A program made the position numbers and the translations under genes. Under the pieces are notes generated by a model. It was not told where the DNA came from. It made no database searches and was given only the letters and a program-made list of their open reading frames with translations. Shown here one piece after another: positions 32,427 through 62,163 of a stretch of 64,000 nt of DNA (position 1 is its first letter; the number at the start of each line of letters is the position of its first letter). Origin of the DNA: a virus; the IMG/VR virus record IMGVR_UViG_3300048580_000526, positions 25,964 to 89,963 of that record, one strand, 5' to 3'.

Positions 32427-33680
32427 CTAAACGACCACTTTCGCTTTATTGAGCCGAAGGGAGACTGTGGACTTCCCTCTGTCAAGCATAAATTTACTAT
32501 TATTTATCCCAAGAGTCAATATTTGTTTGGCTCCATGAATATCTGCATCTTCTTTATGCCCACATTTCCTACAAATGAATAATTCGCCGTTGCGGTTATC
32601 CTTTTCGCAGTGCCCACATATTCTACAAGCCTGACTTGTATATTCAGGATAGATCAGACCCACATGGACTCCATGAGTTTCTGCTTTGTAGATTATGTTT
32701 TGATTAATGAATGAATAACTCCAGTGGTGCTTATTAAATCCGTTGGAGTATTTTCCATTATTTACTTTCATATATTTTAAATTTTCCAAATATATCTGAT
32801 TAACATTATTCCAATCAATATCATGATTTAGACTATAACCTATTTGGTTATTCATAAATTTCTTTATATCATTTATATTTTTACTATAATATCCTATTTG
32901 TTTTGTTTTATTATGTTTCTTATTATAATTTGTTCTATTCAGAGCCATGGCTTTAAATTTGGTATTTAATTTAGCGATCAATTCAGTTAATAATAATCCA
33001 TTTTTATGGGTCGTTTCCACTTTTCCGTCTGATACAGAGATACATTTGTTCATCCCAATATCAATACCCAAAACACCTGTATTGGAGTTATAAGTTAATT
33101 CTTTTTTAAAATATAAATCAATGCTACCATTTGGTCTAATCCTGATACTTTTGGTATTCAATGAATATCCTTGTTGGATTAAATTATTATGATATCTGGA
33201 CAATTTAATCGGTATAGTGATTTTTGGTTCTCTGGGCATTTTAATATGGATATAATGACTAAAAAATTTAGAGGTAGATACTTGTATTTCAACAGTTCGT
33301 TGGTCTAAATCAATCCCTCCTGTAAATTTTGGTGGAACCCATGTTGGGTCATTCAACGCTTTTAATAATTCAGTTTGGTATTTTGTTGGTGATTGATTTT
33401 TTAATGCCTTTTCTGCTTTATTAACTATTGACCTTGTAACTGATGATGCTGTTTTTGTCAAACATTGAGTTAATATTGCAGAAGCTGATTTAATTTGGTC
33501 TGTAATATGTTTTGGTGGAAATTGTTGTATTTCGTTGGTGGCTTTATAATCATTAAATAATAATTCTATTGATTGATTGATAATTGGTTGGTTGATGGAA
33601 ACGAAAGATATTAAATATTTCACCTTTTGTTTATTTGCGTGTTTCAAATTAATATTGGCTGTTCTATTTAATATCTTCAT
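32427..33680 (-). mobile_element. tnpB: IS200/IS605-family TnpB RNA-guided nuclease with no tnpA nearby
   Basis: RuvC-I LGIDIG, RuvC-II YLENL, YTSQACRICGH and CRKCGH zinc ribbon, RuvC-III DADIHGAKQI. Confidence 0.85.
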
Positions 33681-39200: not shown

Positions 39201-39931
39201 ACGTTGATAGATTTAATGGTAATGGTGTATTATCGTCTTTCACTTTGGCTACCACACCAAGCAATATTAATTCATTGGGTGTATATATTGATGGACTTTT
39301 CCAAGACAAGTCACTTTATTCATTAATATCTAATACAGTTACCTTTACCACCCCACCACCATCAGGGACAAATTTGGAAATTGGTACCATAATTATTTCT
39401 GGTGCATCTGGGGATACCTTGAATTATACTACAAATTCATTTGTTGGTGATGGCACAACAACATCTTATACCTTGACAACATCATCCACTTCATTGTATA
39501 CTGATGTTTATATTTCTGGATTATACCAAGAAAGTTCCACCTATACAGTGTCTGGGACAACGTTAACTTTCAGTACAGCCCCATTGAACGGCGATGTTAT
39601 CAATGTTGTAGTGGAAAAAATCACAAGCACATCAACATCAGGTGGTACAGGTGGACCGGGAACAGTTGAATGGAATCTTATTACAGCAAGCACAGGTTTC
39701 TTGGCGTTGACAGAAGATGTTACATTACATGCCCCTACCCACCAAATACGTGGGAACAAATATACATTGGTTGTGAATCAAACAGGCAATCATGCAGTTA
39801 TTTTTGACCCAGTTTATAAATTCCAAGGTGGAATAATACCAACAATCAGTCAAGGTGCTAATAAGACCGATATTTTCACATTTTTATCAAATGGGACATA
39901 TTTACTTGGAATAAGTTCTCAAAATTTCTAA
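36227..39931 (+). CDS. tail fibre protein 2 with 12 tandem beta-rich repeats
   Basis: Same N-terminal anchor; EAATKRYID; 12 copies of V(F/Y)(I/V)xG.(Y/F)Q...Y..SG..LT...P..G..IE. Confidence 0.75.
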   Translation: MPYEIIRYNGAPLVVINDGTINTSSTSLQLVGKGVATYGEAIAEDLVHLLEHCTSPTEPLNPIVGQVWNHLDAGGTGVHILKVCKAESPVVWDAIIQSSGGTMTGSLMLAHDPVQPLEAATKRYIDQRSNFTGLLDVPHSYTAGGAGPGWVPVINSTMTGLEWGLAAGTGGGTVGNLVIDHHGGGPNTAANELLITVENFTGTGSQTVFTLASTIGSQNRINVFIDGIYQNKNTFTLTGSTLTFTEIPLVGSIIEVEILSIVNQGTTTLATNSTLNVNIDRFTGNGVLVNYTLTHSSLLNYTNVFIDGVYQNKDSYTVSGTTLTFTEAPLNTSIIEIEGLYITGTANDTLTISVDRFTSSGTTYTLYGSSTLNYIDVYISGVYQNKNTYTVSGTTLTLSTAPINGETVEILRHSFVAGSGGSVTAVTNELLITVENFTGTGTQTMFNLASTIGSQNRINVFISGLYQNKDTYVISGSILTLSVAPPSGSIIEVEVVSIVNQGTTTLATNSTLNVNIDRFTGDGSLVNYTLSQASSLNFTNVYVDGLYQNKDTYAVSGTTLTFTQAPPNGSIIEIEGLSVTGTANDTLTISVDRFTSSGVTYTLAGSSTLNNTDVYVSGLYQDKSTYTISGTTITLSAAPINGLSIEVVRHSFVAGTSGSSVSGGTGITEFYKSIVSFTGTGSQTVFTLSNTLASQNTANVYVDGAYQDKNTYTISGTTLTFVSAPPNASSIEVEVMAIVNTGTTTASTSSTLVGTIGRFTSNGTTTSYTLAQSSTTSMTNVYISGLYQYKNTYTVSGTTLTLSSSPPNGSIIEVEELSITGTLGDSLMIYCDYFTSNGVTYTLSHSTTLNMTDLYIAGVYQNKNTYTVSGTTLTLTTAPINGLLMEVTSYAFTAGTTSGGGTSTSSLNDLYKVVDTFTGTGTQTVFTLSKTSSFINVFISGVYQEKNTYSVSGTTLTFLSAPPYGDKIDVEIYTIVVFGTTTNATDSTISLNVDRFNGNGVLSSFTLATTPSNINSLGVYIDGLFQDKSLYSLISNTVTFTTPPPSGTNLEIGTIIISGASGDTLNYTTNSFVGDGTTTSYTLTTSSTSLYTDVYISGLYQESSTYTVSGTTLTFSTAPLNGDVINVVVEKITSTSTSGGTGGPGTVEWNLITASTGFLALTEDVTLHAPTHQIRGNKYTLVVNQTGNHAVIFDPVYKFQGGIIPTISQGANKTDIFTFLSNGTYLLGISSQNF
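36795..39620 (+). repeat. intragenic tandem repeats, four triplets of ~70-85-aa units
   Basis: CTAATGAATTATTGATAAC.GTTGAAAATTTCACAGG at 36795 and 37506 (711-nt period); later triplets are more diverged. Confidence 0.8.
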
Positions 39932-48895: not shown

Positions 48896-50542
48896 ATGTC
48901 ATATACAGTGAATAATTTTAACGGATTACTATTAACCACAATCAACGATGGTCAGGTTGACACAACCTCTTCACCATTGCAACTTCTTGGTAAAGGCATC
49001 CCAAATTACGGTGAAGCCATTGCAGAAAACTTTGTCCATCTTTTGGAAAATTTCGCAAGAACCTCCCCTCCACCAAACCCATTGATCGGGCAGTTTTGGT
49101 ATCACATTGATGCTAATGGTGTAGGCAACCATGTTATGAAAGTTTGTAAGAACACTTCACCTGTTTCTTGGGTTGTTCTTTCTGGTGTGGTCACAGGTCA
49201 AGGGACCGGGACTTCTTCAGGATTCCCAGCAGCCCCTGTTGACGGTGATCTTTATTGGGACGGACACCAATTATGGGCTTGGGATAATGGACAATCAAAG
49301 TGGATTCTTATCGCCCCAATGTCCACCCCATCTGAAAACACCTTCGTTTCATTCCAAGGTGATTTGGTATCTGATGGTACTCGTTTTTATAACATCATTA
49401 AAATAGTGGTCAATGGAAAAATCATCGCTATATTCTCTGATAACACAACATCATTCACCCCAAATCCAGCTATTGACGATGGTAAGGGTAATTTGACAAG
49501 TTTTCCAGTTATGTATGGTGGTATGACACTTCACGCAGATTATTTGAATCTTACCCCATATGCCCCATTGAATGCATCATCCCATCCAACAGTTGACAAG
49601 ACTTATGACTTTGGTGCATCAAATTTTAGATGGAAGACTATGTACGCCGACGTTATAGACACAAATTCTTTGAAAGTTTCTGGCTCTACAATTCCAGTAA
49701 GTTCTTTCATGCGTTTAGATTTAACCAACGTCCCAACTGATCCATTGTTGAATTTAGGTTCTACAACGAATCCTTGGGGAACATCATATATGAAATCACT
49801 CTTTTTGATTGACGATCCAAGCCAATTAAATTCTGGTGATGGTGTACTTCAAATACCAGTTGGTACTACAGCACAACGTCCAGCTGGTGCTAATGCTGGG
49901 ACAATTCGTTATAACACTACCATATCATCATTTGAAGGAAAGGGTGGTTCAGGGCAATGGTCATCATTGGGTGGCGTTAAAGACGTTGATGGTGATACTT
50001 TTATTAGTGCTGAAAACTCTCCAGGTGCAAATAACAATGAGTTAAAATTTGTAGCTGGTAACACACAACGTTTAGTTATGGGTTCCACAACTTCAACATT
50101 TTATGGGACTTGGACATTGGCAACTGGTGCAACAATGCAAACCACTCTTGCCGATTTGGCTGAAAGATATGCTGTTGATAATATTGTTGAGCCAGGTGAT
50201 GTTGTGAAGATTGGTGGTGATGCTGAAATCACTAAAACCACTTCAAGATATGATACTGATGTTTTTGGTGTTATATCTGACACAGCTGCATTAAAGATGA
50301 ATTGCGAAGCTGGTTCTGATAAAACCCATCCATATGTTGCATTGTCAGGACGAGTAATGGTTAAAGTTACAGGTCCAGTTACAAAAGGACAACGTTTGGT
50401 ATCAAGTAGTGTGCCGGGTGTTGCAATGGCAATTTCGAGTTCAGATGCCAGTGAAAACATTTTAGCGATTATCGGTAGAGCACTTGAGTCCAGTAATATA
50501 ACTGGGATAAAATTGATTGAGACTGTTGTTGGGGCGAAGTAA
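48896..50542 (+). CDS. tail fibre protein 5 with C-terminal intramolecular-chaperone (peptidase G2-like) domain
   Basis: Shared anchor; GGVKDVDGDTFI; ADLAERY...GDVV...VFGVIS...VALSGRVMVKV...IIGRALE. Confidence 0.75.
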   Translation: MSYTVNNFNGLLLTTINDGQVDTTSSPLQLLGKGIPNYGEAIAENFVHLLENFARTSPPPNPLIGQFWYHIDANGVGNHVMKVCKNTSPVSWVVLSGVVTGQGTGTSSGFPAAPVDGDLYWDGHQLWAWDNGQSKWILIAPMSTPSENTFVSFQGDLVSDGTRFYNIIKIVVNGKIIAIFSDNTTSFTPNPAIDDGKGNLTSFPVMYGGMTLHADYLNLTPYAPLNASSHPTVDKTYDFGASNFRWKTMYADVIDTNSLKVSGSTIPVSSFMRLDLTNVPTDPLLNLGSTTNPWGTSYMKSLFLIDDPSQLNSGDGVLQIPVGTTAQRPAGANAGTIRYNTTISSFEGKGGSGQWSSLGGVKDVDGDTFISAENSPGANNNELKFVAGNTQRLVMGSTTSTFYGTWTLATGATMQTTLADLAERYAVDNIVEPGDVVKIGGDAEITKTTSRYDTDVFGVISDTAALKMNCEAGSDKTHPYVALSGRVMVKVTGPVTKGQRLVSSSVPGVAMAISSSDASENILAIIGRALESSNITGIKLIETVVGAK

Positions 50543-50612: not shown

Positions 50613-53072
50613 ATGTTAAAAAATATGATCCAAATATGGCAGAAAGCCGCACAACACACAACAGAGGGTATTTTTGTGACCACTGTTGATGGGGATATTG
50701 TGTGGGTTAACGAAACATTTTCCCATATTACAGGTTATTCTTCAGCAGAAGCTGTTGGTAAAAACCCAAGATTATTTCAGTACAATGACGGGACAGAAAA
50801 AAAGAAACTGTCTTGGCGTTCATTATGGGTAACTATTTTGGCTGGGAAACTTTGGCGAGCTGAAGTGACGAATAGAAAAAAGAATGGTGACTTATACACT
50901 TGCATCCAAACCATTGTCCCAATATTTGAACAAAATTCAACCAAAATAGAATATTTCGTTGCGATTCATAATGACATAACCGACAAAAGAAGTATAGAAT
51001 ATAATGTACAAATGCGAACCAACCAATTAGAGTTGGCACAGGATATTGCGAAATTGGGTTATTGGGAATGGAATGCTTTAACCAACGAGTTCCATTGGAG
51101 TGATAGAACTTATGAAATTTTTGGAGTTGAAAAAGAAACATTTAACCCTACAATGGAAAATATTCTTGGTTTAATAAGTGAAGATGGTGTTGACTTTTTT
51201 AGATCTTGGTTAAATAGGGCAGTATATGCAAGAGAAGATTTTATCATTGATATTAAAATTAAAAATGAAGATAGAATTATTTATTTAAATTTTGAGTCAA
51301 AGTGTGGTTTAGATGAAAATGGATTTGTCATAAACTTATCAGGTATTGTGCAAGATATTACAGTAAGAAAATTAATTGAAAAGAAATTAAACGAACAATT
51401 ATCATTTGTTCAAACAATGATTGAACATAATCCTAATGCACTCTATTATAAAGATGTTAATAATAGATTTATTGGTTGTAATTTACAATTTGAAAAACTA
51501 TACAATGTGGACAGAAAGGATATAATTGGTAAAACAAACTATGAAGTTTGGGGAAATAGATATAATAAAAAAATTGAAGAAATTGAGTTTGAGGCGTTTG
51601 AATCAAATCATCCAATTCAAACAGAAATTTTTAGTAAAAATATTAATAAAGATTTAATTTTTTCAATATCATCGTATGGTGATGGTGATGGGGAATCTAT
51701 TGGTATTGTTGGTACCATTATTGATATTAGTGAGCGTAAACAAAATGAAAATCAAATTAGATTCATGGCATTTCATGATAGTCTGACTGGTTTGGCTAAT
51801 AGATCAAATATTTATCAACAATTAGAAACACTTCTTTTTGTCAAAAAACAAGAAACCCATCGCCATAATGACAGTGATGATTACTTATCCATTCTCTTTT
51901 TAGACCTTGATCATTTTAAAAATATTAATGATACAATGGGGCATGATATTGGTGATTTATTATTGAAACAGGCAAGTTCCAGAATTCAATCTTGTCTGCG
52001 AAAAGATGATACCCTTGGGAGATTGGGCGGTGATGAATTTGTCATTTTGTGCCAAACCAAACAACCAGAAACAATTGCACAAAAAATAATCTCTGAAATG
52101 GCTACCCCATTTGATTTAAATGGTAATTTGGTTTATATTGGTGTTTCTATTGGTATCGCAATTTATCCAAAAGATGGTGATACAACTAAAGAATTAATGA
52201 AAAATGCAGATTTGGCTCTTTATAAAGCCAAAGAAGATGGGCGAAATACTTTTCATTTTTTCACAGAACAAATGAACATGACAATTCTTGAACGTAGACA
52301 GATAGAAGATGACATGAGGGCAGCAATTGAAAATAAACAATTTGAATTATATTATCAACCGAGGGTCGCTCTCAATGAGACTGGTTATGAAGTTGCAAGC
52401 GCAGAGTGTTTAATACGATGGAACCACCCAACGCTTGGATTGATTTTTCCAAATTCATTTATCAATATAGCAGAGTTGACAGGTTTGATAATACCATTGA
52501 GTGAATGGGTAATAGAAGAATCCATTAAATCGCTATCATTATGGGAAAATGCTCAACACCATCCAGTTATATTATCCATTAATATATCACCTGCACATTT
52601 TAAAACATCAACATTGGTTTCATATATTAAAACGACGTTGGAAAAATATAACGTTTCACCATGTTATTTAGAAATAGAAATTACAGAAAATGTTCTTCTT
52701 GAAAGATCAGAACAAATTATGGAAAATATTAGAGAATTAAAGTTTTTGGGTGTAAAAATGGCAATTGATGACTTTGGAACTGGATATTCATCAATGAATT
52801 ACTTACGAAAATTTAATGTTAACTGCTTGAAAATAGATAAAAGTTTTGTTGATGATTTGGGTATAAACCATGATTCAGAACTTATTGTTAATGCTATAAT
52901 TGGTTTGGCTAAAAATTTAAAAATTAGGTGTGTAGCTGAAGGTGTTGAAACCATTAGCCAATTAGAATATTTGGAAAATGAAGGTTGTGATGAAATTCAG
53001 GGATGGTATTTTTCCAAAGCTATAACTGAGAATAAATTTTTGCAATACGTTCGTGAATTTAATAAAATTTGA
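50613..53072 (+). CDS. PAS-PAS-PAS-GGDEF-EAL diguanylate cyclase / c-di-GMP phosphodiesterase
   Basis: Three PAS/PAC units each ending DIT/DIS.RK; HDSLTGLANR, DLDHFKNIND..GH..GD, RLGGDEF; YYQP, AECLIRW, EITE, DDFGTGYSS, KIDKSFV, VAEGVET, QGWYFSK. Confidence 0.95.
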   Translation: MLKNMIQIWQKAAQHTTEGIFVTTVDGDIVWVNETFSHITGYSSAEAVGKNPRLFQYNDGTEKKKLSWRSLWVTILAGKLWRAEVTNRKKNGDLYTCIQTIVPIFEQNSTKIEYFVAIHNDITDKRSIEYNVQMRTNQLELAQDIAKLGYWEWNALTNEFHWSDRTYEIFGVEKETFNPTMENILGLISEDGVDFFRSWLNRAVYAREDFIIDIKIKNEDRIIYLNFESKCGLDENGFVINLSGIVQDITVRKLIEKKLNEQLSFVQTMIEHNPNALYYKDVNNRFIGCNLQFEKLYNVDRKDIIGKTNYEVWGNRYNKKIEEIEFEAFESNHPIQTEIFSKNINKDLIFSISSYGDGDGESIGIVGTIIDISERKQNENQIRFMAFHDSLTGLANRSNIYQQLETLLFVKKQETHRHNDSDDYLSILFLDLDHFKNINDTMGHDIGDLLLKQASSRIQSCLRKDDTLGRLGGDEFVILCQTKQPETIAQKIISEMATPFDLNGNLVYIGVSIGIAIYPKDGDTTKELMKNADLALYKAKEDGRNTFHFFTEQMNMTILERRQIEDDMRAAIENKQFELYYQPRVALNETGYEVASAECLIRWNHPTLGLIFPNSFINIAELTGLIIPLSEWVIEESIKSLSLWENAQHHPVILSINISPAHFKTSTLVSYIKTTLEKYNVSPCYLEIEITENVLLERSEQIMENIRELKFLGVKMAIDDFGTGYSSMNYLRKFNVNCLKIDKSFVDDLGINHDSELIVNAIIGLAKNLKIRCVAEGVETISQLEYLENEGCDEIQGWYFSKAITENKFLQYVREFNKI

Positions 53073-53108
53073 TAAATAGTTTAAAGAACTATTTGGAGAA
53101 TTGATATT

Positions 53109-53522
53109 ATGCCAGTAACATATACGGGAATCACCAGAACCACATCATCCCCGATTTACACAGATTTTAACGTTTCATCATTCTTGGCTGAATGTAACGC
53201 CTTGAAAGCGTTATTGGTTCCTGGTGCATTATTGGATCACAATCTTCTTCGTCGTCTTCAGGTTGTTTACAATAATTTTGAAACCCATCGTCACACTGCT
53301 GCTGATCAATATTTCGTTGCCTATACTGGGTCTGGTAATCTTGGTGGGACTGATTCTGCTGGGACTATTACCACAACTGATCCTGTTGGGTTCAGTGCAT
53401 CCACTATAGCGGTATTATCTGGGACATTGGTTACTGCAGATTTGGTTGATGATTTTGTGTCCAAGATCAACGCTGCGAAAACCCATCTCCATAACGTTAC
53501 AGAAACATCAAACGCAAGTTAA
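53109..53522 (+). CDS. small late protein with two helix-HxH repeats
   Basis: GATAAATA box at about 53072-79; NNFETHRHTAAD and NAAKTHLHNVTE. Confidence 0.65.
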   Translation: MPVTYTGITRTTSSPIYTDFNVSSFLAECNALKALLVPGALLDHNLLRRLQVVYNNFETHRHTAADQYFVAYTGSGNLGGTDSAGTITTTDPVGFSASTIAVLSGTLVTADLVDDFVSKINAAKTHLHNVTETSNAS

Positions 53523-53584
53523 ATATTGAATGTTATGGTTAATATTTGGTATGATAAATAAATATAAAATAGGAGAATAAGATT

Positions 53585-54208
53585 ATGACAGATAATACTG
53601 TACCAACAACAACTAATACTTCGACAGTACCAGATGCCCCAACTAAAGCACCAGATGACACTGTTGATGCACAAACTTATCAACAGATGTTAGATATCCT
53701 GAAGGATTTGACTGACCACACCCATACATTTTATGACAGTTATGGTACCGCTTGCCAATGCAACTGCGCTTGTTTTGCAGGTGATACTTTAATTCATACC
53801 AGAGAAGGTGTGATGACAGCATTTAACTTGACTGGAAAAACAGTTGAAGTGTACTGTATTGATGATGTTTGGAGATCAGCTACTTGGAAATCTTATGGAT
53901 TACAAAAACTTTGGTCATTGACATTAAATAACGGGGAAGTTATTCGTGTAACTGAAGATCATCGTTGGCCGGTAATAGGTAAATCAGAAGTGGTATTAAC
54001 CAGAGATTTAATGGGTGAAAAACTTCATTGTAAGTTTGGGGATTTCAGAGAAGTAGAAGTTGTTGGTGTAACTGATTTGGGAATTTATGAATTGGTTCAT
54101 TGTTGTGAAGAACCAGTGACAGAAACTTTCGCTTTGGCTTCTGGAATTATTACTAAAAATTGTAATTGCACATGCTGCACTCGTGGGATGGTTTGGGGTG
54201 TGGCATAA
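53585..54208 (+). CDS. Cys-rich (Cx)n precursor-like protein interrupted by a mini-intein
   Basis: Late box 53553-60 and AGGAG RBS; DHTHTFYD..TACQCNCA|CFAGDT...IITKN|CNCTCCTRGMVWGVA. Confidence 0.8.
   Translation: MTDNTVPTTTNTSTVPDAPTKAPDDTVDAQTYQQMLDILKDLTDHTHTFYDSYGTACQCNCACFAGDTLIHTREGVMTAFNLTGKTVEVYCIDDVWRSATWKSYGLQKLWSLTLNNGEVIRVTEDHRWPVIGKSEVVLTRDLMGEKLHCKFGDFREVEVVGVTDLGIYELVHCCEEPVTETFALASGIITKNCNCTCCTRGMVWGVA
53771..54160 (+). mobile_element. mini-intein (Hint domain, 130 aa, no homing endonuclease)
   Basis: Block A CFAGDTLIHT, block B VTEDHRW (TxxH), block F/G ETFALASGIITKN followed by Cys +1. Confidence 0.85.
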
Positions 54209-54258
54209 ATGTCACAGTGTGATAAAAATAACACTATATTATTTGAAGAAATGATCTC

Positions 54259-54287
54259 TTGACAGAAAAGATAAATAATGTTATTAT
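54259..54287 (+). promoter_or_regulatory. sigma70 promoter with a nested late box
   Basis: TTGACA 54259-64, N17, TATTAT 54282-87; GATAAATA 54270-77 inside the spacer. Confidence 0.6.
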
Positions 54288-54313
54288 TGTTTTAACAGAT
54301 GGAGAAGACTATC

Positions 54314-54517
54314 ATGCGTAAATTGACCAAGGAAGAAATTGCGGCAAAGATCGCCAGTGCAAAGATTTATGCGGCAGCCCACCCTGAAATTCATTCAGAA
54401 TGGGATGCTGCTGTTGCAGAGTTAAAATCAAGGGTTTATATTGGTGAGTCTGGTGCCTATACTACTCCTGTCAAGGAAGGCGACCTTATTCGTATTGACG
54501 AGAATGATACAGAATGA
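54314..54517 (+). CDS. small protein, copy 1 (putative antitoxin)
   Basis: MRKLTKEEIAAKIASAKIY...YIGESGAYTTPVKEGDLI; ATGA overlap with the next gene. Confidence 0.6.
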   Translation: MRKLTKEEIAAKIASAKIYAAAHPEIHSEWDAAVAELKSRVYIGESGAYTTPVKEGDLIRIDENDTE

Positions 54518-55158
54518 GATGGGCTGAGATAATTACAGAAGTAGTTTTTAAAACAACCAAACAATATGGTATTCAACAAATTTTTGTGTCTAAACAATTT
54601 ATGAAAAGTTTTGACTCTTTTAAATTGATGGACAAAGATTTAGAAAAAGATTTAAATGAATTTTTATTTAAAAAAATAAGTGGTACGACTTTAAGTAAAG
54701 AAGCTCCACTATATGGTCCATTGGTTGGATTGTACCATTATCATCTTCGTCATGGTAGGGTGATTATAATTTATGCGTCAGATAATGAACATATAGAAAT
54801 TTATGCAATTGGTGGGCATGAATATGATGGTGATAATGCCCAACGACAATTGCGTAAAAGCATTAAGGGAATGACACAAGATAGTTTTGAAGTTTGGCAT
54901 TTACCAACTAATAAAATTGAATTTGCCAAACAACAATTATCTGTTGTTGAGAATTTGCTTTATTCATTGGTTGATGAAGTGGATATTTTAAAAGAGTATT
55001 TATCCACTGAAAATGGAATTATTGTTGATTTGATCACGCAAGAATTAAATATTTCTAACAAGACTGAATTTAAAGAATTTCTTTTAACTTGGGAAAAACA
55101 ATATAAAATATCGTTTGATAAATTTATCAAACGATTAATACCTGCTAATACAAATTAA
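54514..55158 (+). CDS. YafQ/RelE-family mRNA interferase-like protein with a C-terminal extension
   Basis: SKQFMKSF...EAPLYGPLVGLYHYHL..GRVIIIY...IEIYAIGGH follows the YafQ pattern DHPL.G...H....LIY....GTH. Confidence 0.6.
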   Translation: MRWAEIITEVVFKTTKQYGIQQIFVSKQFMKSFDSFKLMDKDLEKDLNEFLFKKISGTTLSKEAPLYGPLVGLYHYHLRHGRVIIIYASDNEHIEIYAIGGHEYDGDNAQRQLRKSIKGMTQDSFEVWHLPTNKIEFAKQQLSVVENLLYSLVDEVDILKEYLSTENGIIVDLITQELNISNKTEFKEFLLTWEKQYKISFDKFIKRLIPANTN

Positions 55159-55171
55159 TGAGGAAAATAAC

Positions 55172-55399
55172 ATGCGTAAATTCACCAAGGAAGAAATTGC
55201 GGCAAAGATCGCCAGTGCAAAGATTTATATGGATGCCCATCCACATCTAAAAGACATTGATTTTAAGAAAATTATGGATGAATTTGAAACTCGTGAATAT
55301 ATTGGTGAATCTGGTGCTTATACTACACCTGTCAAGGAAGGCGACCTTATACCATTTGATGAGAATGAACAATTAGAATTTCATTTTATGAAACAATAA
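55172..55399 (+). CDS. small protein, copy 2 (putative antitoxin)
   Basis: MRKFTKEEIAAKIASAKIY...YIGESGAYTTPVKEGDLI. Confidence 0.6.
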   Translation: MRKFTKEEIAAKIASAKIYMDAHPHLKDIDFKKIMDEFETREYIGESGAYTTPVKEGDLIPFDENEQLEFHFMKQ

Positions 55400-55669
55400 A
55401 TCTTCAGTTTTTTCAAATTGTGCAAATAATCCAATAGATTCTTTAAATTCTTCAGCATCTCCCCCTTGAACTTCCAGATTAATTTCATCTAAATACAACA
55501 CAACGTTCATTGATTTTTCTGTACAAGATTGTATTAATGCTATTACTTCTTTGCCTGAAGCTAATAAATCAAGGCACATTCTTTCAGTCCAACCATTTTT
55601 TAAAAAATGGGCTGGTAACGCTCCTAATAGAGCAGTATTGGAATCCACGATATGAAAAATCATCCCCAC
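55373..55669 (-). CDS. hypothetical protein
   Basis: Overlaps the upstream 55660 gene in the same operon. Confidence 0.5.
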   Translation of the reverse strand: MGMIFHIVDSNTALLGALPAHFLKNGWTERMCLDLLASGKEVIALIQSCTEKSMNVVLYLDEINLEVQGGDAEEFKESIGLFAQFEKTEDLLFHKMKF

Positions 55670-56349
55670 CTCAATCTAAAAAACATTGCGTCTTGAACAT
55701 TCATAAAATAATAATTATGACGAAAATAGTCATGGATAAATGGGCATTCAATTTTTTTCAACCAATCATAAACTTCATCAGATTGTAAGAAAGGATGACT
55801 TTCTTTATATTGGAAAATATTAAAAACATCATTTATTTGTTCACCAGATAAAATTGGTATTTCCACGAAAACTTGTTGTCCATTTTCATCTTCTACTGTG
55901 GTTGATTTAGCATCATAAATTCCTTCATAACTAATTTTGAAATGGTTAGAATATTTACTATTTAGGGTGCTTTCGTTAATACCATTTCTATGTTTAAATA
56001 AATGGAGCCATAATGATAAATGCTCACTCCAAAGTTCAAGAAATTTTTTGGCATCTTTTTTTCTTGGAAAATTATACAACCCTTTAGTCCACACACCACC
56101 TGATAGATAGTTATGGTAGTCTTGGTGAATTAACGTCCCATTGTTTGAACCAACCCAAGAATGAATTTCAGGGAACCAAAGTTTAAATTCTTCAAGATGG
56201 CGAAGGTGTTGTTCTTTTGTTGGAAATTGCCAATTTGAAACGTTATTATGTTCATAAAATAATGGAATATTCCAAGATAGAATTTTCTTTCTACCTGTCC
56301 CAAACCCATGATATTTTTCTTTAATTGGTTCTAATACTAAAAATTCCAT
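55660..56349 (-). CDS. hypothetical protein with two F....DA..F.L.W repeats
   Basis: YNFPRKKDAKKFLELW and YYFMNVQDAMFFRLRWG; GGAGG RBS; TTGACA promoter at about 56366-56393 (-). Confidence 0.6.
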   Translation of the reverse strand: MEFLVLEPIKEKYHGFGTGRKKILSWNIPLFYEHNNVSNWQFPTKEQHLRHLEEFKLWFPEIHSWVGSNNGTLIHQDYHNYLSGGVWTKGLYNFPRKKDAKKFLELWSEHLSLWLHLFKHRNGINESTLNSKYSNHFKISYEGIYDAKSTTVEDENGQQVFVEIPILSGEQINDVFNIFQYKESHPFLQSDEVYDWLKKIECPFIHDYFRHNYYFMNVQDAMFFRLRWG

Positions 56350-56389
56350 TTTCACCTCCAGCATTATCCTACCATGAATTATTTTATTG

Positions 56390-56695
56390 TCAAAGGATTA
56401 AAAATTTTAATTTTATGTATGAACATATATCCTTATGTTTGAAATACCAACATCCTCCCCAAAATTCCCATAAAGCATTTTTGTTTATTGGGAAAACATC
56501 CAATCTTGATTCTTCTAATATTAATGGATCGCCATATGTTTGTTTGAGATAATCATGAATTATTTTCCATTGCTCCATTGAAAGATCATCATTGCTTTCT
56601 ATTTTATATGGAAAATAATCGTTTAGGTACATATCAATTTGTTCTGTATGTGAGAAATTAAATTCTTTGAAATATGTTAAATCCATTTTAATCAT
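56390..56695 (-). CDS. hypothetical protein
   Basis: Overlaps the rSAM stop; C-terminal WYFKHKDICSYIKLKF resembles the motif in the neighbouring gene. Confidence 0.55.
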   Translation of the reverse strand: MIKMDLTYFKEFNFSHTEQIDMYLNDYFPYKIESNDDLSMEQWKIIHDYLKQTYGDPLILEESRLDVFPINKNALWEFWGGCWYFKHKDICSYIKLKFLIL

Positions 56696-58964
56696 GCCTA
56701 AAAGGTGTTATTTGTTTTAATTCTGTATATAAAATTGCTATTTTTTTGCACATATCATCAGGTTGAAATACAGGTCTACCTGCGACAGCATTCCCTGCTG
56801 GACATTGGTAACAATAAAGTGTATTACAGTCTTGGCATTCTGGTAATTTTTGTAATTTTTCATATTCTGACTGTATTTCCATAATGGCAACACGATTGAT
56901 TTCATTTTTGAATAAATTTCCTAAAATGGTATGGGGAACGTCTTCTTTTCTTGAGACGAATTTATAACACCCTGAAAAATCGCCAGAACCATCGATTGAA
57001 ATTTCATCCATTGCTGCAGACATACATCCAGTTCTACCTTTTTCCCCAACTCCTTCTGAAATTTGGAATTTTAATAAATCTTTGTGGGTCGATAAGATGT
57101 TTTTTATAGTTGATGAAAATGTTTCCCAAGTTTTATCATTCCAAGAAATCCAACCATCTGTAAAAGAATTTATCAATGGGTGAAATATAAATTTTCTAAC
57201 GCCAATATTATATAATGATGTGAACCAATGATTTATTTCATTGGTTTGGTCTGGTGTAAAAGTAGCCTGTATGGTTAATTGGTGTGGTTGTGTAATTGAA
57301 GCAATTAATTTTATATTATCAATAATTTTTTGGATTTGTTCTGTTGTTAGTTTTCTATTTTTGGTATTACCATTGAGTGAATCTAATGATACAGTCATTC
57401 TAACGTCTTGATATGAAAAATATTCTTGGATAAATTGTGGTGTTAATAATAGTCCGTTTGTTACAACGCTTATGGTTTGATGTCCAACAGATTTTGTTAT
57501 ATCATTTTTGTATTGGTTCATGAATGATAAAATTAATTTATTATGGATTAACGGTTCTCCCCCAAAAAATTGAACATATTTAAAATATTTAGAATTGATA
57601 TTAGCAAGAAAATCCCATGCTTGTTTGATTTTTTCTGGTGTAAATGGTTCATAATTTTTGACGTGTTGCATATAACAGTAATCACATTTTAGATTGCAAG
57701 AATTGGTTAAAAGCAAATCTACATATTTTAGGTTGTAGAATAGGTCATTGGCATCAGAAAGAACGTTTGTTTTTGTAACTTGTTGATTTTGTTCTGGTTT
57801 TTTATTGATATGTTTGATTAAATCATCTTCTTTGTTCAAATCATAATTGTAACGATTTAGAAAAATATCAATAAGCTTTGTAAAATCCTTGCAAGGACTT
57901 TTATCCAATGTTTGGTTATCTGCCCAAGTATAATAAAAATGAATATCGTTGCATATTGGTGGGTCCATATAGATGCAAGATTTGCATTTCTCTAAAATTG
58001 GTGGTTCCCAGTCATGGTATATTTCAATCTTATCTTTCCATTGTCCTTTTCTGGCTTTTTCATTATGATATTCGGCAGTGACATATTCTGGATATAGATA
58101 CCCATCTGCAGAAAGAATATAGTAGTCATAATTATCTGTTGACGGCAATCCAATATCTGGTGTTACCCCATCAAGACACACAGGTATTTTGTACACATAA
58201 AGCACTTCCAAAAATTGTTTCATTCTGGTAAAATATTCATTTAGTGAAAATCCTGGGATGGTTAATAGGTCAATGAATCCAACGTTTGGTTTATAGGTAA
58301 ATCTTGCAAGCACCAACGACAATTTATTTATTTTATTTCTGTGTTGGGAAAATAGCTTTACAATTGGGGCAATCCTGTCAATGGAAAAGAAATCCCTACT
58401 ATCTGGTGGAACTGTATAGTATAGTTCTATATTGGAAACATTTTGGTGCAAAAAATCCAACGTATCATCGATTAATAATGGCGGGGAATTTGTTGGCGAT
58501 TCTCTCAATGATTCTTGATAGGAAAAATCATAACTCAAACTAATCATTAGACGTTGGTTCCATTTTTGGAAGAAATCTTTATTTTTTAGGATTAGTAAAC
58601 CATTTGTGACGATTTGGAATTTCATTTTTTGGCAAACATTTTCCAACACACCTGTCATAATATCATCCATAATTTCAACCCAAAGTAATGGTTCCCCACC
58701 ATAAAATGTTATAAAATCCAATGGGGATTCTGAACCAACGTTGAAACTTTTGATAAAATTGATAATTTGGGGAACATCAGATTTTTTCATTTGAATATTA
58801 CCATGAAGTTCTTTGATTGCATCTCTGTCACAATAGGTACAATTTAGATTACAAGTTGACCCAAGATGGATTGAAAGATATACCCCTCTCCCTTCGATGT
58901 GACGATAATCTCCAAGATTGCATGAACGATTTTTTAAATATTCGCTATATTGTTGGGATGGCAT
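56688..58964 (-). CDS. fused tandem radical SAM enzyme (two rSAM domains, each with a SPASM/twitch-like Cys tail); putative peptide maturase
   Basis: CNLNCTYC + FYGGEPLL + VTNGLL + CKSC..C..C; CNLKCDYC + FFGGEPLI + VTNGLL + GC...SIDGSGDFSGC...CQDCNTLYCYQCPAGN...DMC. Confidence 0.9.
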   Translation of the reverse strand: MPSQQYSEYLKNRSCNLGDYRHIEGRGVYLSIHLGSTCNLNCTYCDRDAIKELHGNIQMKKSDVPQIINFIKSFNVGSESPLDFITFYGGEPLLWVEIMDDIMTGVLENVCQKMKFQIVTNGLLILKNKDFFQKWNQRLMISLSYDFSYQESLRESPTNSPPLLIDDTLDFLHQNVSNIELYYTVPPDSRDFFSIDRIAPIVKLFSQHRNKINKLSLVLARFTYKPNVGFIDLLTIPGFSLNEYFTRMKQFLEVLYVYKIPVCLDGVTPDIGLPSTDNYDYYILSADGYLYPEYVTAEYHNEKARKGQWKDKIEIYHDWEPPILEKCKSCIYMDPPICNDIHFYYTWADNQTLDKSPCKDFTKLIDIFLNRYNYDLNKEDDLIKHINKKPEQNQQVTKTNVLSDANDLFYNLKYVDLLLTNSCNLKCDYCYMQHVKNYEPFTPEKIKQAWDFLANINSKYFKYVQFFGGEPLIHNKLILSFMNQYKNDITKSVGHQTISVVTNGLLLTPQFIQEYFSYQDVRMTVSLDSLNGNTKNRKLTTEQIQKIIDNIKLIASITQPHQLTIQATFTPDQTNEINHWFTSLYNIGVRKFIFHPLINSFTDGWISWNDKTWETFSSTIKNILSTHKDLLKFQISEGVGEKGRTGCMSAAMDEISIDGSGDFSGCYKFVSRKEDVPHTILGNLFKNEINRVAIMEIQSEYEKLQKLPECQDCNTLYCYQCPAGNAVAGRPVFQPDDMCKKIAILYTELKQITPFRHD

Positions 58965-59948
58965 CTAATTACTCCTCAATACGGTGAATGACCAATCAAA
59001 TTCTTTGGTACAAGTTTCCCAAAATGCCCCTGTGGAAATTTTAATGTTTAGGTAATTGAAATTGGATATTGGGGTAATGTTCAATTTATTATTCTCCCAT
59101 GAAAATTTCATATTGGTATTTATCAAGACATCTTTGGAAATGTCCAACGAATGACCAATTAAACCAATTTCAGAACCTGACTTATGAACACCATTAAATG
59201 TTTCCCAACTTTTATTACTGAAAAAATCCAACTTGAATGGACCTTCTGTTATAACGACATTATCATTTCTAAATTGAATATTTTCAAAATCCAAATTAAA
59301 TATTCTTGTTTTCAATGGTTCTGTATTTTCTGCAAAAATGGTAAAATCTTTTGATTTATTAACGAACAATACCTTATTTGATATTAGACTATTATTCAAC
59401 ACCATAATATAAATTGGTAAGTTCCCCAATTTGAACATTGATATTGGGAACAGGGATAAATTTTGATGTTTGGAATAATCAGTTTCAATTTCTTGATTAT
59501 TATAAAACACTGTTTGAGATAATGGATTGTATAATTGTCCTTTATCATTTTTTGTTAAAAAATTCATATATTGGAATGGGTTCTTGGCTTTTTCTTCATT
59601 GAAATCCACTATTCCATAAAACGACGACCCTGCTATTGTTGGATGCTTTTCTTCATCACAATATTTCAACATTGCGTTTATGTTTATATTATAGCTATAA
59701 TCGTATTTAAAATTATTGGCATTTTTTGGGATGATAGTTAGAAGATTTTCTGGTTGATTATTGTCCCGAATTAGTTTCCACATATGTTGATTTTGTCTAA
59801 ATGGGAAACGATATTCAAGCGAAGTCCCAGACACCAATTGGGAATAGTTGTCTTCATCATCTGGACCACGATAATTTCTTATATATTCTTCCACAGAAGA
59901 AAACAAGTCATTATCTGGTATGCTATTTTGGATAAAAATGTATTTCAT
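58965..59948 (-). CDS. unknown protein, rSAM-operon paralog 3
   Basis: Stop codon directly abuts the rSAM ATG; FKLGNLPIYIMVLNN. Confidence 0.75.
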   Translation of the reverse strand: MKYIFIQNSIPDNDLFSSVEEYIRNYRGPDDEDNYSQLVSGTSLEYRFPFRQNQHMWKLIRDNNQPENLLTIIPKNANNFKYDYSYNININAMLKYCDEEKHPTIAGSSFYGIVDFNEEKAKNPFQYMNFLTKNDKGQLYNPLSQTVFYNNQEIETDYSKHQNLSLFPISMFKLGNLPIYIMVLNNSLISNKVLFVNKSKDFTIFAENTEPLKTRIFNLDFENIQFRNDNVVITEGPFKLDFFSNKSWETFNGVHKSGSEIGLIGHSLDISKDVLINTNMKFSWENNKLNITPISNFNYLNIKISTGAFWETCTKEFDWSFTVLRSN

Positions 59949-59985
59949 TGTTTGATTATAAAATAATTCTTTTAGATATTCAAAT

Positions 59986-61215
59986 TTAATCTTTTATGAA
60001 TTGTACTTTGGATAAATCTTTTATGAATTCGTCAACAGTTTGATTTTCATTTTTCGCAATACCATCAATCAATAATCCATTGGCGTCATATCTATCAAAA
60101 ATTTCTGGATTGTTTGGAACCAATGAAGTTTTATTGATTATGAATTCACAATACATTTTATTTGATTTTTGTAAAGCATCCATTTCTTTTCCAAGATTCA
60201 ATTTAACTTTCATATATGTTTTTTGTCCATTTTTCAATCCTGTAACATCAAATGTTATCCTATAAGACCCCACAGCCCCATAAAGAACTTTATTAACAGA
60301 GAACGGGATTGTGGTTTCAATATCAAAAATACTATCTGGAATTTTTTCAATATGATTATATAATGTTGCGTTATTTTCCCATTCATATTTTTCGATTGGT
60401 GAAAAAATTTCCATACTGAAGGTATCTTGGCTAACATGTAAATCATACTTTCCAGCCAAATAATCAACATTGAAGAATACAGAATTTAAAAATTCGTGTT
60501 TGAAGGTGAAATTTTCTTGTTTGCAAGTTTCAGTTTGAACATCCCCACAATAAGTGTGTGGTGAAATTTTTTCTTGGATGATTTCACTGTTGGTAATCAT
60601 GACATATATTGAAGTGTTTTCTAATTTGTTGACTGTGAAGACTGTAATTAATTTGTCCTTGCTCTCAACTATTTTATCATTATCACAACGATATAACGAA
60701 CCACCATTCAAGTACATGAAGAACATATTTTTTAACATATCTGCTGGGCTTATTGATTTTAATGTTGTTCCATCAATGCCATAAATCACTAATGATTGTT
60801 TTTTATCAACCCAATCAAGAATTTCCCAAGAAGGCATTTCTCTATAATAATGGGGTAATGTTTTAAAAATCCTATCAACTGGTGTTGTTGGGGTAATATC
60901 TTTAACATAATTGGGCATATCCAAAATAGTAAATGGGCTTTCAAAATAAAACCTATCTGGTCTTGGGTCTGTATCTTTTTTAGCCATGAGATTGGTATCA
61001 AATGGCTTTGGGTCTGTTATCAACACAAATCTTGCCTTATGAGTTGTGCCAGTTTGGGAAAAAGTGTTTATCTTACTACTTTGGATTGGAATATTGGTTA
61101 TAGAATTTTCATCATGCCCATGATTGAACATATCAATACTGGATAGAATTTCTTTACCTTTTTGGGTACCATCTGTAATAATGAGGAATCGTTTTCCATT
61201 GTTTATTGTTTTCAT
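59986..61215 (-). CDS. unknown protein, rSAM-operon paralog 2
   Basis: NKLENTSIYVMITNS; collinear similarity to both neighbours. Confidence 0.75.
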   Translation of the reverse strand: MKTINNGKRFLIITDGTQKGKEILSSIDMFNHGHDENSITNIPIQSSKINTFSQTGTTHKARFVLITDPKPFDTNLMAKKDTDPRPDRFYFESPFTILDMPNYVKDITPTTPVDRIFKTLPHYYREMPSWEILDWVDKKQSLVIYGIDGTTLKSISPADMLKNMFFMYLNGGSLYRCDNDKIVESKDKLITVFTVNKLENTSIYVMITNSEIIQEKISPHTYCGDVQTETCKQENFTFKHEFLNSVFFNVDYLAGKYDLHVSQDTFSMEIFSPIEKYEWENNATLYNHIEKIPDSIFDIETTIPFSVNKVLYGAVGSYRITFDVTGLKNGQKTYMKVKLNLGKEMDALQKSNKMYCEFIINKTSLVPNNPEIFDRYDANGLLIDGIAKNENQTVDEFIKDLSKVQFIKD

Positions 61216-61217
61216 CG

Positions 61218-62117
61218 TTATACCTTATAAATGTTGTAATCGTAGAATGTTTTTTGGGATTCGAAGATATAGTTATTCAAGAACTCGTTTGAATTCAATT
61301 TGATGCACAAATACCCGGTGGTCATGCTTGGAACATTAGACAAATCTAATGTTAAAATCGTCCCCTCTAAAGTGAATGGGATATTGGAACTGACTGTTAT
61401 CAAGTCTGCTAAATTTGGGGGCAACAATGGTTTAACATCATTTGTAAAAAGTTCAATCGTCAAAGTGTCTTCATTAACGAACACTGTTTTCTTCCCGATA
61501 ATTTGTTCCACTCCAGCAGTAAAATTGACTGTGAAGAATTTATTTTTTAGGTATTCGGTTGAAGAAGATGCTATAATGGTTGAAGTTGAACTTTTAATAG
61601 TCATCCCTCTATTAGCATTAACCACAGCAGCGGAATTCAAAATCCCTGTATAGATTGGAAGGGTACCAACTTTAAAGAATGTTGCGAATGAGAAGAAGAA
61701 CGCTGGCATGGATTCATCTGCCACAACCAATTCTGCGGTTTCGCAATTTATGAATGAACCATCTGGATTTCTTGAATAATACCCCAACCCTGTTAAAAGA
61801 TTTTGGTCTGTTACCAATCCCGGTACTGGGGACATAATATAGCAGTTATTGTATCTGTCACAATATTGTTTAATATTGGCTACTGAAACAACACGATGGA
61901 AATCTGTAGCATTTGGGTTTGTAATATCGTTGATGTTGAAAATTCTGTGCCCGAAAATTAGATTATCATTTGATTTGTCAAAATATAGTGTGAATAGATA
62001 GTTATTATTATGGAAGAAAGTGTATTGGGGTGCTTGTCCCCTTACATAATTTTCGATTTCATAAATCATATCTTTTTGGTTTAAAGCACTATCTTGGATA
62101 ATATATAAATCATTCAT
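61218..62117 (-). CDS. unknown protein, rSAM-operon paralog 1
   Basis: FKVGTLPIYTGILNS; AAGGAG RBS; late box GATAAATA 62139-46 (-). Confidence 0.75.
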   Translation of the reverse strand: MNDLYIIQDSALNQKDMIYEIENYVRGQAPQYTFFHNNNYLFTLYFDKSNDNLIFGHRIFNINDITNPNATDFHRVVSVANIKQYCDRYNNCYIMSPVPGLVTDQNLLTGLGYYSRNPDGSFINCETAELVVADESMPAFFFSFATFFKVGTLPIYTGILNSAAVVNANRGMTIKSSTSTIIASSSTEYLKNKFFTVNFTAGVEQIIGKKTVFVNEDTLTIELFTNDVKPLLPPNLADLITVSSNIPFTLEGTILTLDLSNVPSMTTGYLCIKLNSNEFLNNYIFESQKTFYDYNIYKV

Positions 62118-62163
62118 TTTAAAAATCTCCTTTTCTTTTATTTATCATTTTCGAACAAAGTGG

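Follow-up and report, generated by a model that had tools for sequence, protein, structure and literature searches.

What does a phage do with a small protein that ends in a ladder of alternating cysteines, when the gene for that protein lies between a series of fibre-like genes and an operon for a double radical S-adenosylmethionine (SAM) enzyme? The question is raised by a cassette in a stretch of 64,000 nucleotides, hereafter the window, that spans positions 25,964 to 89,963 of the IMG/VR virus record IMGVR_UViG_3300048580_000526. The window constitutes the last 64 kb of that 89,963-bp record, whose CheckV completeness of 23% indicates that the source is a fragment of a very large, uncultivated phage; its G+C content is about 34%, and it contains a long series of fibre-like genes, one of them an ORF of 5,022 aa. 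The cassette encodes the Cys-ladder protein (PRE), a companion protein with two HxH motifs (HXH), three accessory proteins (ACC), and a 758-aa two-domain radical SAM (rSAM) enzyme. We consider it moderately probable that these genes serve the post-translational maturation of a small protein that acts with the fibre apparatus, and not the maturation of an exported peptide, because PRE copies a repeat of HXH, because the two also occur fused, because 36 of 44 distinct loci lie beside fibre-like genes, and because no peptidase or exporter is conserved among them. That PRE is the substrate of the rSAM enzyme we hold with greater confidence than this reading as a whole; that PRE and HXH form part of the virion, with less.

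The reading frame of PRE is interrupted by a mini-intein, which begins with CFAGDTL, carries TEDH in block B, and ends in GIITKN followed by a cysteine (Asn192, Cys193). The N-terminal region of this element belongs to the intein family TIGR01445 (a score of 27.2 versus a cut-off of 24.5), over the first 80 residues it shares 41% identity with an intein region in the ribonucleotide-reductase (RNR) gene of a Thermobifida phage, and the DnaE inteins in the PDB align with it weakly. The spliced protein would consist of 62 + 15 = 77 aa, with ...YGTACQCNCA/CNCTCCTRGMVWGVA as the junction, the slash marking the splice site. This 77-aa form, which the first-pass annotation had predicted, was confirmed by homology since P0001, a 74-aa homolog lacking the intein, reads ...YGTACQCNCQCNCTCCTRGMVW (also written ...TDHTHTFYDDYGTACQCNCQCNCTCCTRGMVW) continuously across that junction; altogether P0001 and 45 other PRE sequences are intein-less alleles that run uninterrupted through the insertion site. 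An intein within the ladder is found in only the window and a close relative, P0155, which is 50% identical and has a homologous intein at the same site. The penultimate residue of the window intein is Lys instead of the usual His, and P0155 reads Met-Asn-Cys at that place.

The 45 distinct PRE sequences follow a common plan, in which a variable start rich in Ser, Thr, and Ala is followed by an amphipathic helix (..TF+QMLDVLE.L..), then by H-x-H and [FY]-Y-D-D-Y, then by four to six Cys-X pairs, and lastly by [GST]-R-G plus two further residues; the C-terminal part may be written as H-x-H-x-[FY]-Y-D-D-Y-x-x-x-(C-x)4-6-R-G-x-x, and the length ranges from 63 to 93 aa. At the X positions of the ladder, N, Q, D, E, and A account for almost all residues. 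It is in the helix, the HxH, and the FYD-Y region that the invariant positions occur, so that the supposed leader is the best-conserved part of the protein, which pattern, as judged from these alignments, is the reverse of that of a typical leader and core. Moreover, in a profile-profile comparison the HXH family aligns with PRE through the second of its helix-HxHxxxD units (hhalign probability 95.7%, E 9e-9), and that unit occurs twice in the HXH consensus, so that three helix-HxH units are distributed over the two proteins and PRE appears from its sequence to be a stand-alone third copy of the HXH repeat. In P0159, of 230 aa, a natural fusion joins three HxH units and the ladder in a single chain, and N-terminally extended forms with the same unit and ladder at their end are found in P0156 and P0158; the longer proteins found to terminate in a ladder measure from 135 to 230 aa. 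A search for the DNA pattern CNCNCNC-x-RG returned nine loci, six of them already known, and the three new ones contained no ladder-bearing open reading frame (ORF).

Two divergent forms of PRE may be mentioned at this point. At L075:5829-6452 (+), a protein of 207 aa contains a single helix-HxH unit that leads directly into a very long Cys-X ladder (CNCECTCTCTCTGTCGCTCECTCTCDCATCG); this gene lies some 1.5 kb 5' of rSAM genes whose products are 22% identical to the window's, and its sequence identifies the locus as a distant branch or variant of the cassette system. At L072:9414-10675, in a 543-kb contig of a very large phage, five consecutive genes with an rSAM motif are followed by an HXH of 288 aa and a PRE-like protein of 127 aa, which latter ends in an irregular Cys-rich tail.

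The HXH protein of the window, with the motifs THRHT and THLHN, belongs to a family for which a search of 1.84 billion representatives gave 247 clusters at E <= 1e-3. Some members are fused to further domains: P0064 (313 aa) bears the Pfam GP38 tail-fibre adhesin domain (E 1e-7), and P0101 (484 aa) a Gly_rich_2 domain (E 1.7e-7). The AlphaFold2 model of HXH (mean predicted local distance difference test, pLDDT, 84.9) consists of three helices plus a hairpin, the HxH motifs following the helices in a compact bundle; no convincing match was found for it in the PDB, where the best Z was 5.5 (IglD/TssK-like) with a Foldseek E > 1, and the HXH profile likewise matched no PDB sequence. A low-confidence ESM Atlas model of HXH resembled the metal-binding bundles of the hemerythrin type at a template-modelling (TM) score of 0.50, which we regard as a lead only; the structural look-ups in that atlas with the cassette proteins gave nothing beyond chance level. 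As variations within the family, a Gly-rich insert separates the two HxH units of the protein at L008:7122-8282, and P0036, P0070, and P0119 (451-488 aa) combine a middle domain with a C-terminal Hint module (CCFPAG...) and may be variants of the HxH protein that cleave themselves.

To what extent the genes belong together was the next matter, the co-occurrence search having been named beforehand as a check on the supposed linkage of the Cys-rich protein, the rSAM enzyme, and the accessory genes. When aligned sequences of the C-terminal rSAM domain (rC) were used to scan IMG/VR, 62 viral loci were obtained, of which 58, including those of the Ralstonia jumbo phages RP12 and RP31, were 37-43% identical to the rC of the window, these closely related loci carrying 44 distinct precursor sequences; a scan of viral contigs with the whole 758-aa enzyme as a single query had found no matches, and the precursor pattern HTH[TV]FYD had reached only six viral loci, thus badly under-counting the family in comparison with the rC-domain scan. 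We annotated the loci with hidden Markov models (HMMs) built in this analysis from the cassette families. The resulting near-constant set comprises HXH (120-155 aa, sometimes about 290-450), PRE (63-93), ACC (about 280-345, in one or two copies), rC (430-600 aa), the ortholog of the N-terminal rSAM domain (rN, 350-380 aa), a third rSAM (r3, 415-490 aa), and a gene designated X (350-440 aa) with a CX3CX2C motif and no family match. Of these, HXH, PRE, ACC, rC, and rN are found at practically all loci whose flanks are long enough, the exceptions without a PRE ending at a contig edge; X and r3 are usual, and a DUF3050 protein (heme-oxygenase-like) is often present as well. Scans that started from PRE returned only loci that carry rSAMs as well. 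The linkage thus extends over 58 closely related viral loci, and the observation that would have told against it, rSAM and ACC genes occurring apart from a Cys-ladder partner, was not made, which outcome speaks in favour of the system. Two further loci, L073 and L074, were set aside as containing unrelated rSAMs (in the 22-25% identity range) with neither a ladder protein nor the cassette set.

Within cultivated phages, tblastn found the enzyme in only RP12 and RP31, where it is encoded by two neighbouring genes whose order is reversed. The region just 5' of these genes in RP12 contains a homolog of the HxH protein (125 aa, E 3e-10), a 295-aa ACC homolog, and a 65-aa ORF ending in HTHVFYDNYGSNCNCNCACTRGSL; this precursor homolog (...SHTHVFYDNYGSNCNCNCACTRGSL; L001:8889-9086, equivalent to NC_041911.1 82888-83085) is without annotation in the GenBank and RefSeq records of both phages. 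A pattern scan of 185,579 prokaryote species genomes, one genome per species, found no relatives of PRE. The features restricted to the window are the fusion of rN with rC, the presence of three ACC paralogs, the divergent two-strand layout, and the apparent lack of X, r3, and DUF3050. We found no description of the cassette in the literature on phage RiPP (ribosomally synthesised and post-translationally modified peptide), SPASM, and jumbo-phage combinations, and the paper on RP12 and RP31 lists the rSAM genes merely among the 'other genes'.

The surroundings of the cassette point in the direction of the fibres. A neighbour sharing the N-terminal module of the fibre paralogs of the window was present in the 36 of 44 distinct loci referred to above, and in 7 of 10 diverse loci the gene directly upstream of the cassette was fibre-like or virion-structural according to PHROGs. 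When the neighbouring genes other than those of the cassette set were clustered over the 44 loci, we found fibre-like and uncharacterised families only, with no recurrent peptidase or transporter, and the Pfam and NCBIfam scans of the window region detected no leader peptidase or exporter. The first-pass annotation had likewise seen neither of the two and had preferred a product of the virion or fibre to a secreted bacteriocin, which preference is strengthened by these neighbourhoods, by the homology of the leader to the HXH repeat, by the fusions, and by the adhesin domains.

The membership of the enzyme in the radical SAM superfamily is clear: PF04055 scored 94.9 bits against a gathering threshold of 29.5, in two stretches, and both halves keep the CX3CX2C motif (CNLNCTYC and CNLKCDYC) together with GGEP. 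The description of this protein as a double radical-SAM/SPASM enzyme accordingly stands, with a full SPASM in the C-domain only. There the 7-Cys motif (C...GX4C...CX2CX4-5CX2-3C...C) is invariant in six orthologs; in the N-domain it is reduced to CX2CX7C...C, or four of the seven cysteines. The best NCBIfam match of the 758-aa enzyme was the PapB ranthipeptide maturase (E 1e-48), followed by the SCIFF, QhpD, CcpM, CefB, and CXXX-repeat maturases and, more weakly, by the families of the anaerobic sulfatase-maturating enzymes (anSME), the cyclophane synthases (YhhB, XyeB), and PqqE-like proteins. The scores nevertheless failed the curated cut-offs, with 166.2 bits versus 340 for PapB (NF047865) and 93 versus 425 for SCIFF (TIGR03974), and the RP12 genes show the same family pattern, RP12 rC reaching 125 versus 340 for PapB. 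Since the PapB, SCIFF, and QhpD types rank best though below their cut-offs, these enzymes are, by sequence, SPASM peptide or protein maturases that lie outside every curated family. The PADLOC matches were confined to a viperin-like rSAM core, which we took as superfamily similarity.

No Pfam or NCBIfam domain was found ahead of either rSAM core, where the stretch before each CX3CX2C is only some 30 to 50 residues long. The ACC proteins are obligatory partners and, because neither rSAM domain appears to have room for a RiPP recognition element (RRE), probably present the substrate or help in assembly. The paralogy that had been attributed to the three upstream genes is real though distant: pairwise BLASTP gave E-values of 5e-7, 4e-5, and 0.11, and the family HMM, whose alignment includes these three, matched them all at E <= 1e-77. 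In the ACC model (pLDDT 87.7), residues 190-299 match only generic Ig-like folds (Z <= 6.8); the Foldseek matches to Fab fragments, having a TM of about 0.16, were discarded as spurious. The sole structural relative in BFVD was ORF075 of RP12, with a TM of 0.77.

The coordinates of the features are collected in Table 1. The gene order runs from the last fibre-like gene through a PAS-GGDEF-EAL gene to HXH and PRE, then past a toxin-antitoxin-like cassette to the convergent operon with the three ACC genes and the rSAM gene. The tight coupling that had been ascribed to this operon is seen in intergenic gaps of 2, 37, and 0 nt, and the box claimed to be shared by both convergent units and the tail genes is indeed present ahead of each unit. 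Within the window, the octamer K-ATAAATA occurs at 32 sites versus 15.2 +/- 4.2 expected, a count reached by none of 100 shuffles; 14 of the 32 are intergenic, at 19-56 nt 5' of gene starts. Two fibre-like genes, at 44216 and 48896, are among those so preceded, as are HXH, PRE, and the leading gene of the minus-strand operon. Since the box of the cassette resembles the T4 late promoter TATAAATA and the same box precedes fibre genes, the cassette would probably be expressed late.

Table 1. Features of the cassette and of its immediate surroundings, in window coordinates.
Feature	Position	Strand	Remarks
Last fibre-like gene	48896..50542	+	N-terminal module phrog_14394 recurs beside the cassette in 36/44 distinct loci
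GATAAATA promoter-like box	53071..53078	+	30 nt 5' of the HXH gene
HXH, 137 aa, two helix-HxHxxx[D/E] units	53109..53522	+	phrog_31780
GATAAATA box	53553..53560	+	24 nt 5' of the precursor (PRE) gene
PRE ORF including the intein, 207 aa	53585..54208	+	ORF call
PRE N-extein, 62 aa	53585..53770	+	Variable N-terminus, helix, DHTHTFYDSY, first three Cys-X pairs
Mini-intein, 130 aa (residues 63-192)	53771..54160	+	Cys1 ... TEDH ... TKN; no homing endonuclease domain
PRE C-extein CNCTCCTRGMVWGVA and stop	54161..54208	+	
234-aa ORF	55660..56364	-	Farther down the same strand; no relatives found; system membership uncertain
101-aa ORF	56390..56695	-	8-nt overlap with the rSAM stop; searches found no relatives; system membership uncertain
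758-aa two-domain rSAM ORF	56688..58964	-	Two Radical_SAM stretches
rSAM C-domain, about residues 386-758	56688..57809	-	Orthologous to the stand-alone rC gene of other loci; CNLKCDYC; complete 7-Cys SPASM; PapB the best family
rSAM N-domain, about residues 1-385	57810..58964	-	Ortholog of the separate rN gene; CNLNCTYC; reduced 4-Cys SPASM-like end
ACC paralog 3, 327 aa	58965..59948	-	
ACC paralog 2, 409 aa	59986..61215	-	
ACC paralog 1, 299 aa	61218..62117	-	N-terminal alpha/beta domain without a fold match; C-terminal Ig-like sandwich
GATAAATA box	62139..62146	-	21 nt 5' of the accessory/rSAM operon

As to the chemistry, the complex between HXH and PRE, and the place of both in the virion, we propose the following sequence of events. 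PRE would be translated and the intein spliced out to give the 77-aa protein, splicing necessarily preceding the full modification of the ladder because the mini-intein interrupts it. The fused SPASM enzyme, equivalent to rN plus rC and helped by ACC, would then abstract hydrogen from residues of the ladder, upon which cysteine sulfur would be joined to a carbon of a neighbouring Asx or Glx, in thioethers of the ranthionine or sactionine type, thus converting the ladder tail into a rigid knot that would resist redox change and proteases. Finally, HXH and PRE would assemble, possibly with the three HxH units placed around a metal, in or on the adjacent fibre or adhesin apparatus. PapB, QhpD, and NxxcB employ Asp, Glu, and Asn as acceptors; since the spacers of the ladder fit those acceptor types, and with CrpC/CrpA as a precedent, we would consider Cys-to-Asx/Glx thioether cross-linking the most likely modification.

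A more specific form of this proposal, to which we would attach no more than a tentative and rather low expectation, would have PRE and HXH form a pseudo-threefold cap at the fibre tip that holds a metal and whose ladder is converted to thioethers by two to four rSAMs. In such a cap, the three helix-HxHxxxD units would be contributed by two chains, or by one chain as in P0159, and the intein in the ladder might, equally tentatively, constitute a splicing checkpoint, for example a redox- or time-dependent one, before maturation.

Among the systems known, the nearest by enzyme type are PapB/PapA (freyrasin) and CteB/CteA (SCIFF), in which a SPASM rSAM is likewise encoded beside a short Cys-rich ribosomal product with Asp- or Glu-type residues near each cysteine, PapB being the top NCBIfam match for the full-SPASM domain of the cassette. 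The cassette enzyme nonetheless scores far below the cut-offs of those families and has no visible N-terminal RRE; its target shows a Cys-X spacing instead of the CX3D or SCIFF patterns; the enzymes come in pairs or as a fusion, a cassette having as many as four, and their obligatory partner, of some 300 aa, is without a fold match; and the genes are phage-borne among fibre-like genes, the 'leader' of the product being a conserved, folded-looking unit. QhpD, for its part, is a SPASM rSAM that cross-links Cys to Asp or Glu in a subunit of about 80 aa, QhpC, which is retained in a protein complex; TIGR03906 is among the matches of the window enzyme, albeit with 86 bits, far below the cut-off of 453. 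QhpC forms part of a periplasmic enzyme whose quinone cofactor derives from Trp, and, unlike what is seen in the cassette, it requires a dedicated protease and an exporter for its maturation. A likeness to the HxH sites of T4 gp37 and gp12 and to gp38-type adhesins resides in the location of the genes for the HxH proteins beside fibre genes and in the GP38 domain of P0064. The trimeric Fe/Zn site uses six His, which number the three HxH units of the HXH and PRE pair would supply; the HxH motifs of the HXH model, which is that of a monomer, however, follow alpha-helices in a bundle instead of occurring in a trimeric beta-structure, and HXH matches no solved fibre part in either sequence or fold.

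The intein resembles the mini-inteins of phage and bacterial replication genes (DnaE, RNR, and terminase) in passing the TIGR01445 cut-off, in having Cys1, TxxH, a terminal Asn, and a Cys+1, and in the existence of an intein-less allele, but differs from them in having Lys for the penultimate His, in lacking an endonuclease domain, and in being inserted within the ladder of a 77-aa Cys-ladder protein, such a small protein being an unusual intein host. The nearest experimental precedent for cross-linking at the level of a protein is CrpC/CrpA of Methanococcus voltae, in which a SPASM rSAM puts ranthionine thioethers on a Cys-rich protein and not on a leader and core peptide (Dieter et al., 2026; PMC13692751). 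That system differs in being archaeal and cellular, in having a large substrate with the motifs CAGM, CAVD, and CPLV, and in the RRE predicted in CrpC (PMC13692751).

Could the cassette instead be a true RiPP pathway, in which the N-terminal two thirds of PRE were the leader and the Cys ladder the core, the product being released at lysis or exported to act as a toxin, a signal, or a manipulator of the host or its competitors? PRE has the size of a precursor with a Cys-rich C-terminus, and the adjacent SPASM rSAMs match RiPP maturases best, several such enzymes per cluster being typical of RiPP pathways; in addition, the neighbouring proteins were not detected by mass spectrometry in the RP31 virion. 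Since, however, the 'leader' is the most conserved part of PRE and has its homolog in the unit repeated in HXH, the product of the gene next to it, since PRE has no conserved cleavage motif and larger proteins end in the same HxH unit and ladder, and since the 44 loci share neither a leader peptidase nor a transporter family, the position of the cassette among fibre-like genes being constant, we judge this explanation decidedly improbable. Marginally less improbable, though unlikely all the same, is that PRE together with HXH forms a metal or Fe-S mini-protein that is not a substrate at all—a metallothionein-like scaffold, a cluster or sulfur donor, or an electron carrier for the rSAMs—the target of which enzymes would then be elsewhere, as for example a fibre protein, HXH, a lipid or sugar, or a nucleotide. 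Metals are classically bound by Cys-X-Cys ladders and HxH, a set of up to four rSAM-type proteins together with DUF3050 would need many clusters and electrons, and the ESM Atlas model mentioned above resembles hemerythrin-type bundles, albeit as a low-confidence lead; against this possibility, the enzymes are closer to Cys-peptide maturases than to cofactor or sugar enzymes, the spacers of the ladder are limited to residues known as acceptors of thioethers, the loci conserve no other candidate for a substrate, and we know of no dedicated peptide cluster donor for SPASM enzymes.

PRE might, alternatively, be modified by a different rSAM chemistry, such as the conversion of Cys to formylglycine, epimerisation, C-C cross-links to the invariant Tyr or Phe, or the formation of a peptide-derived cofactor. 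Formylglycine is the product of anaerobic sulfatase maturases, and PQQ (pyrroloquinoline quinone) and mycofactocin are cofactors derived from peptides. The top scores of the PapB, SCIFF, and QhpD-type thioether synthases for the full-SPASM domain lead us to assign to this last explanation the smallest likelihood of the three, even though the invariant F-Y-D-x-Y before the ladder is not explained by thioethers alone, the C-x-C-x-R at the end of the ladder resembles C-x-[PA]-x-R, which we take to be the sulfatase motif, the anSME, cyclophane, and PqqE-like families are among the weaker matches, and the several different rSAMs per cassette suggest multiple reactions.

The preferred reading, namely the maturation of a small protein acting with the fibre apparatus, itself meets with several difficulties. 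The Cys-X ladder and the HxH could equally be a set of metal or Fe-S ligands. Every rSAM score is far under the curated cut-offs, so that the chemistry could differ from that of the families ranked best. The splicing competence of the intein is assumed, since the penultimate His is replaced by Lys; the HXH model is a helical bundle plus a hairpin with no match to a solved fibre part, and not a T4-like trimeric beta-structure; and X, r3, and DUF3050 were not found in the 90 kb available, that is, in about 23% of the genome. In addition, the virion proteome of RP31 (Table S3 of that study), a shallow survey of 32 proteins from gel bands, does not include ORF68-71, the orthologs of two fibre-like genes, HXH, and ACC; PRE could not have been detected there, because the 65-aa ORF is not annotated.

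Other genes of the window deserve a brief mention. An inserted gene at 50613-53072 (+), which separates the last fibre-like gene from that of HXH and has a GATAAATA box 56 nt 5' of it, encodes a full-length PAS-PAS-GGDEF-EAL protein of 819 aa (EAL 233 bits, GGDEF 158 bits), which is, to judge by its domains, a phage-borne enzyme of cyclic di-GMP metabolism. The region 54299-55399 (+), between the precursor and the rSAM operon, contains a YafQ/RelE-like gene (214 aa; a weak match of 18.5 bits, under the cut-off) flanked by two small genes that share near-identical N-termini (MRKLTKEEIAAKIASAKIY...), and looks like a toxin-antitoxin cassette. Within the structural region, a single ORF of 5,022 aa occupies 16519-31587 (+); the next large ORF, at 36227-39931, has nine DUF4183 repeats plus tail-fibre PHROG matches; and a 417-aa ORF at 32427-33680 (-) lies on the opposite strand within the structural block.

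The cross-linking of Cys-rich products by radical SAM enzymes is known for bacterial peptides, and only recently for an archaeal protein. If the proposal advanced here were true, four to eight phage genes would be devoted to chemistry on a small protein tied to host recognition, which arrangement would represent a new kind of virion maturation in a sizeable group of large phages, including RP12 and RP31 of Ralstonia solanacearum; should the fibre-tip cap, which we hold to be doubtful, also prove correct, a virus particle would for the first time be seen to contain an enzymatically cross-linked, RiPP-like part. The system would in addition provide a new fold of helper protein and, in (Cys-X)n-Arg-Gly, a new substrate motif for enzyme discovery, to which the window adds a natural fusion of the two core enzymes. 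Since RP12 and RP31 are culturable, the system is directly testable in phages that carry it.

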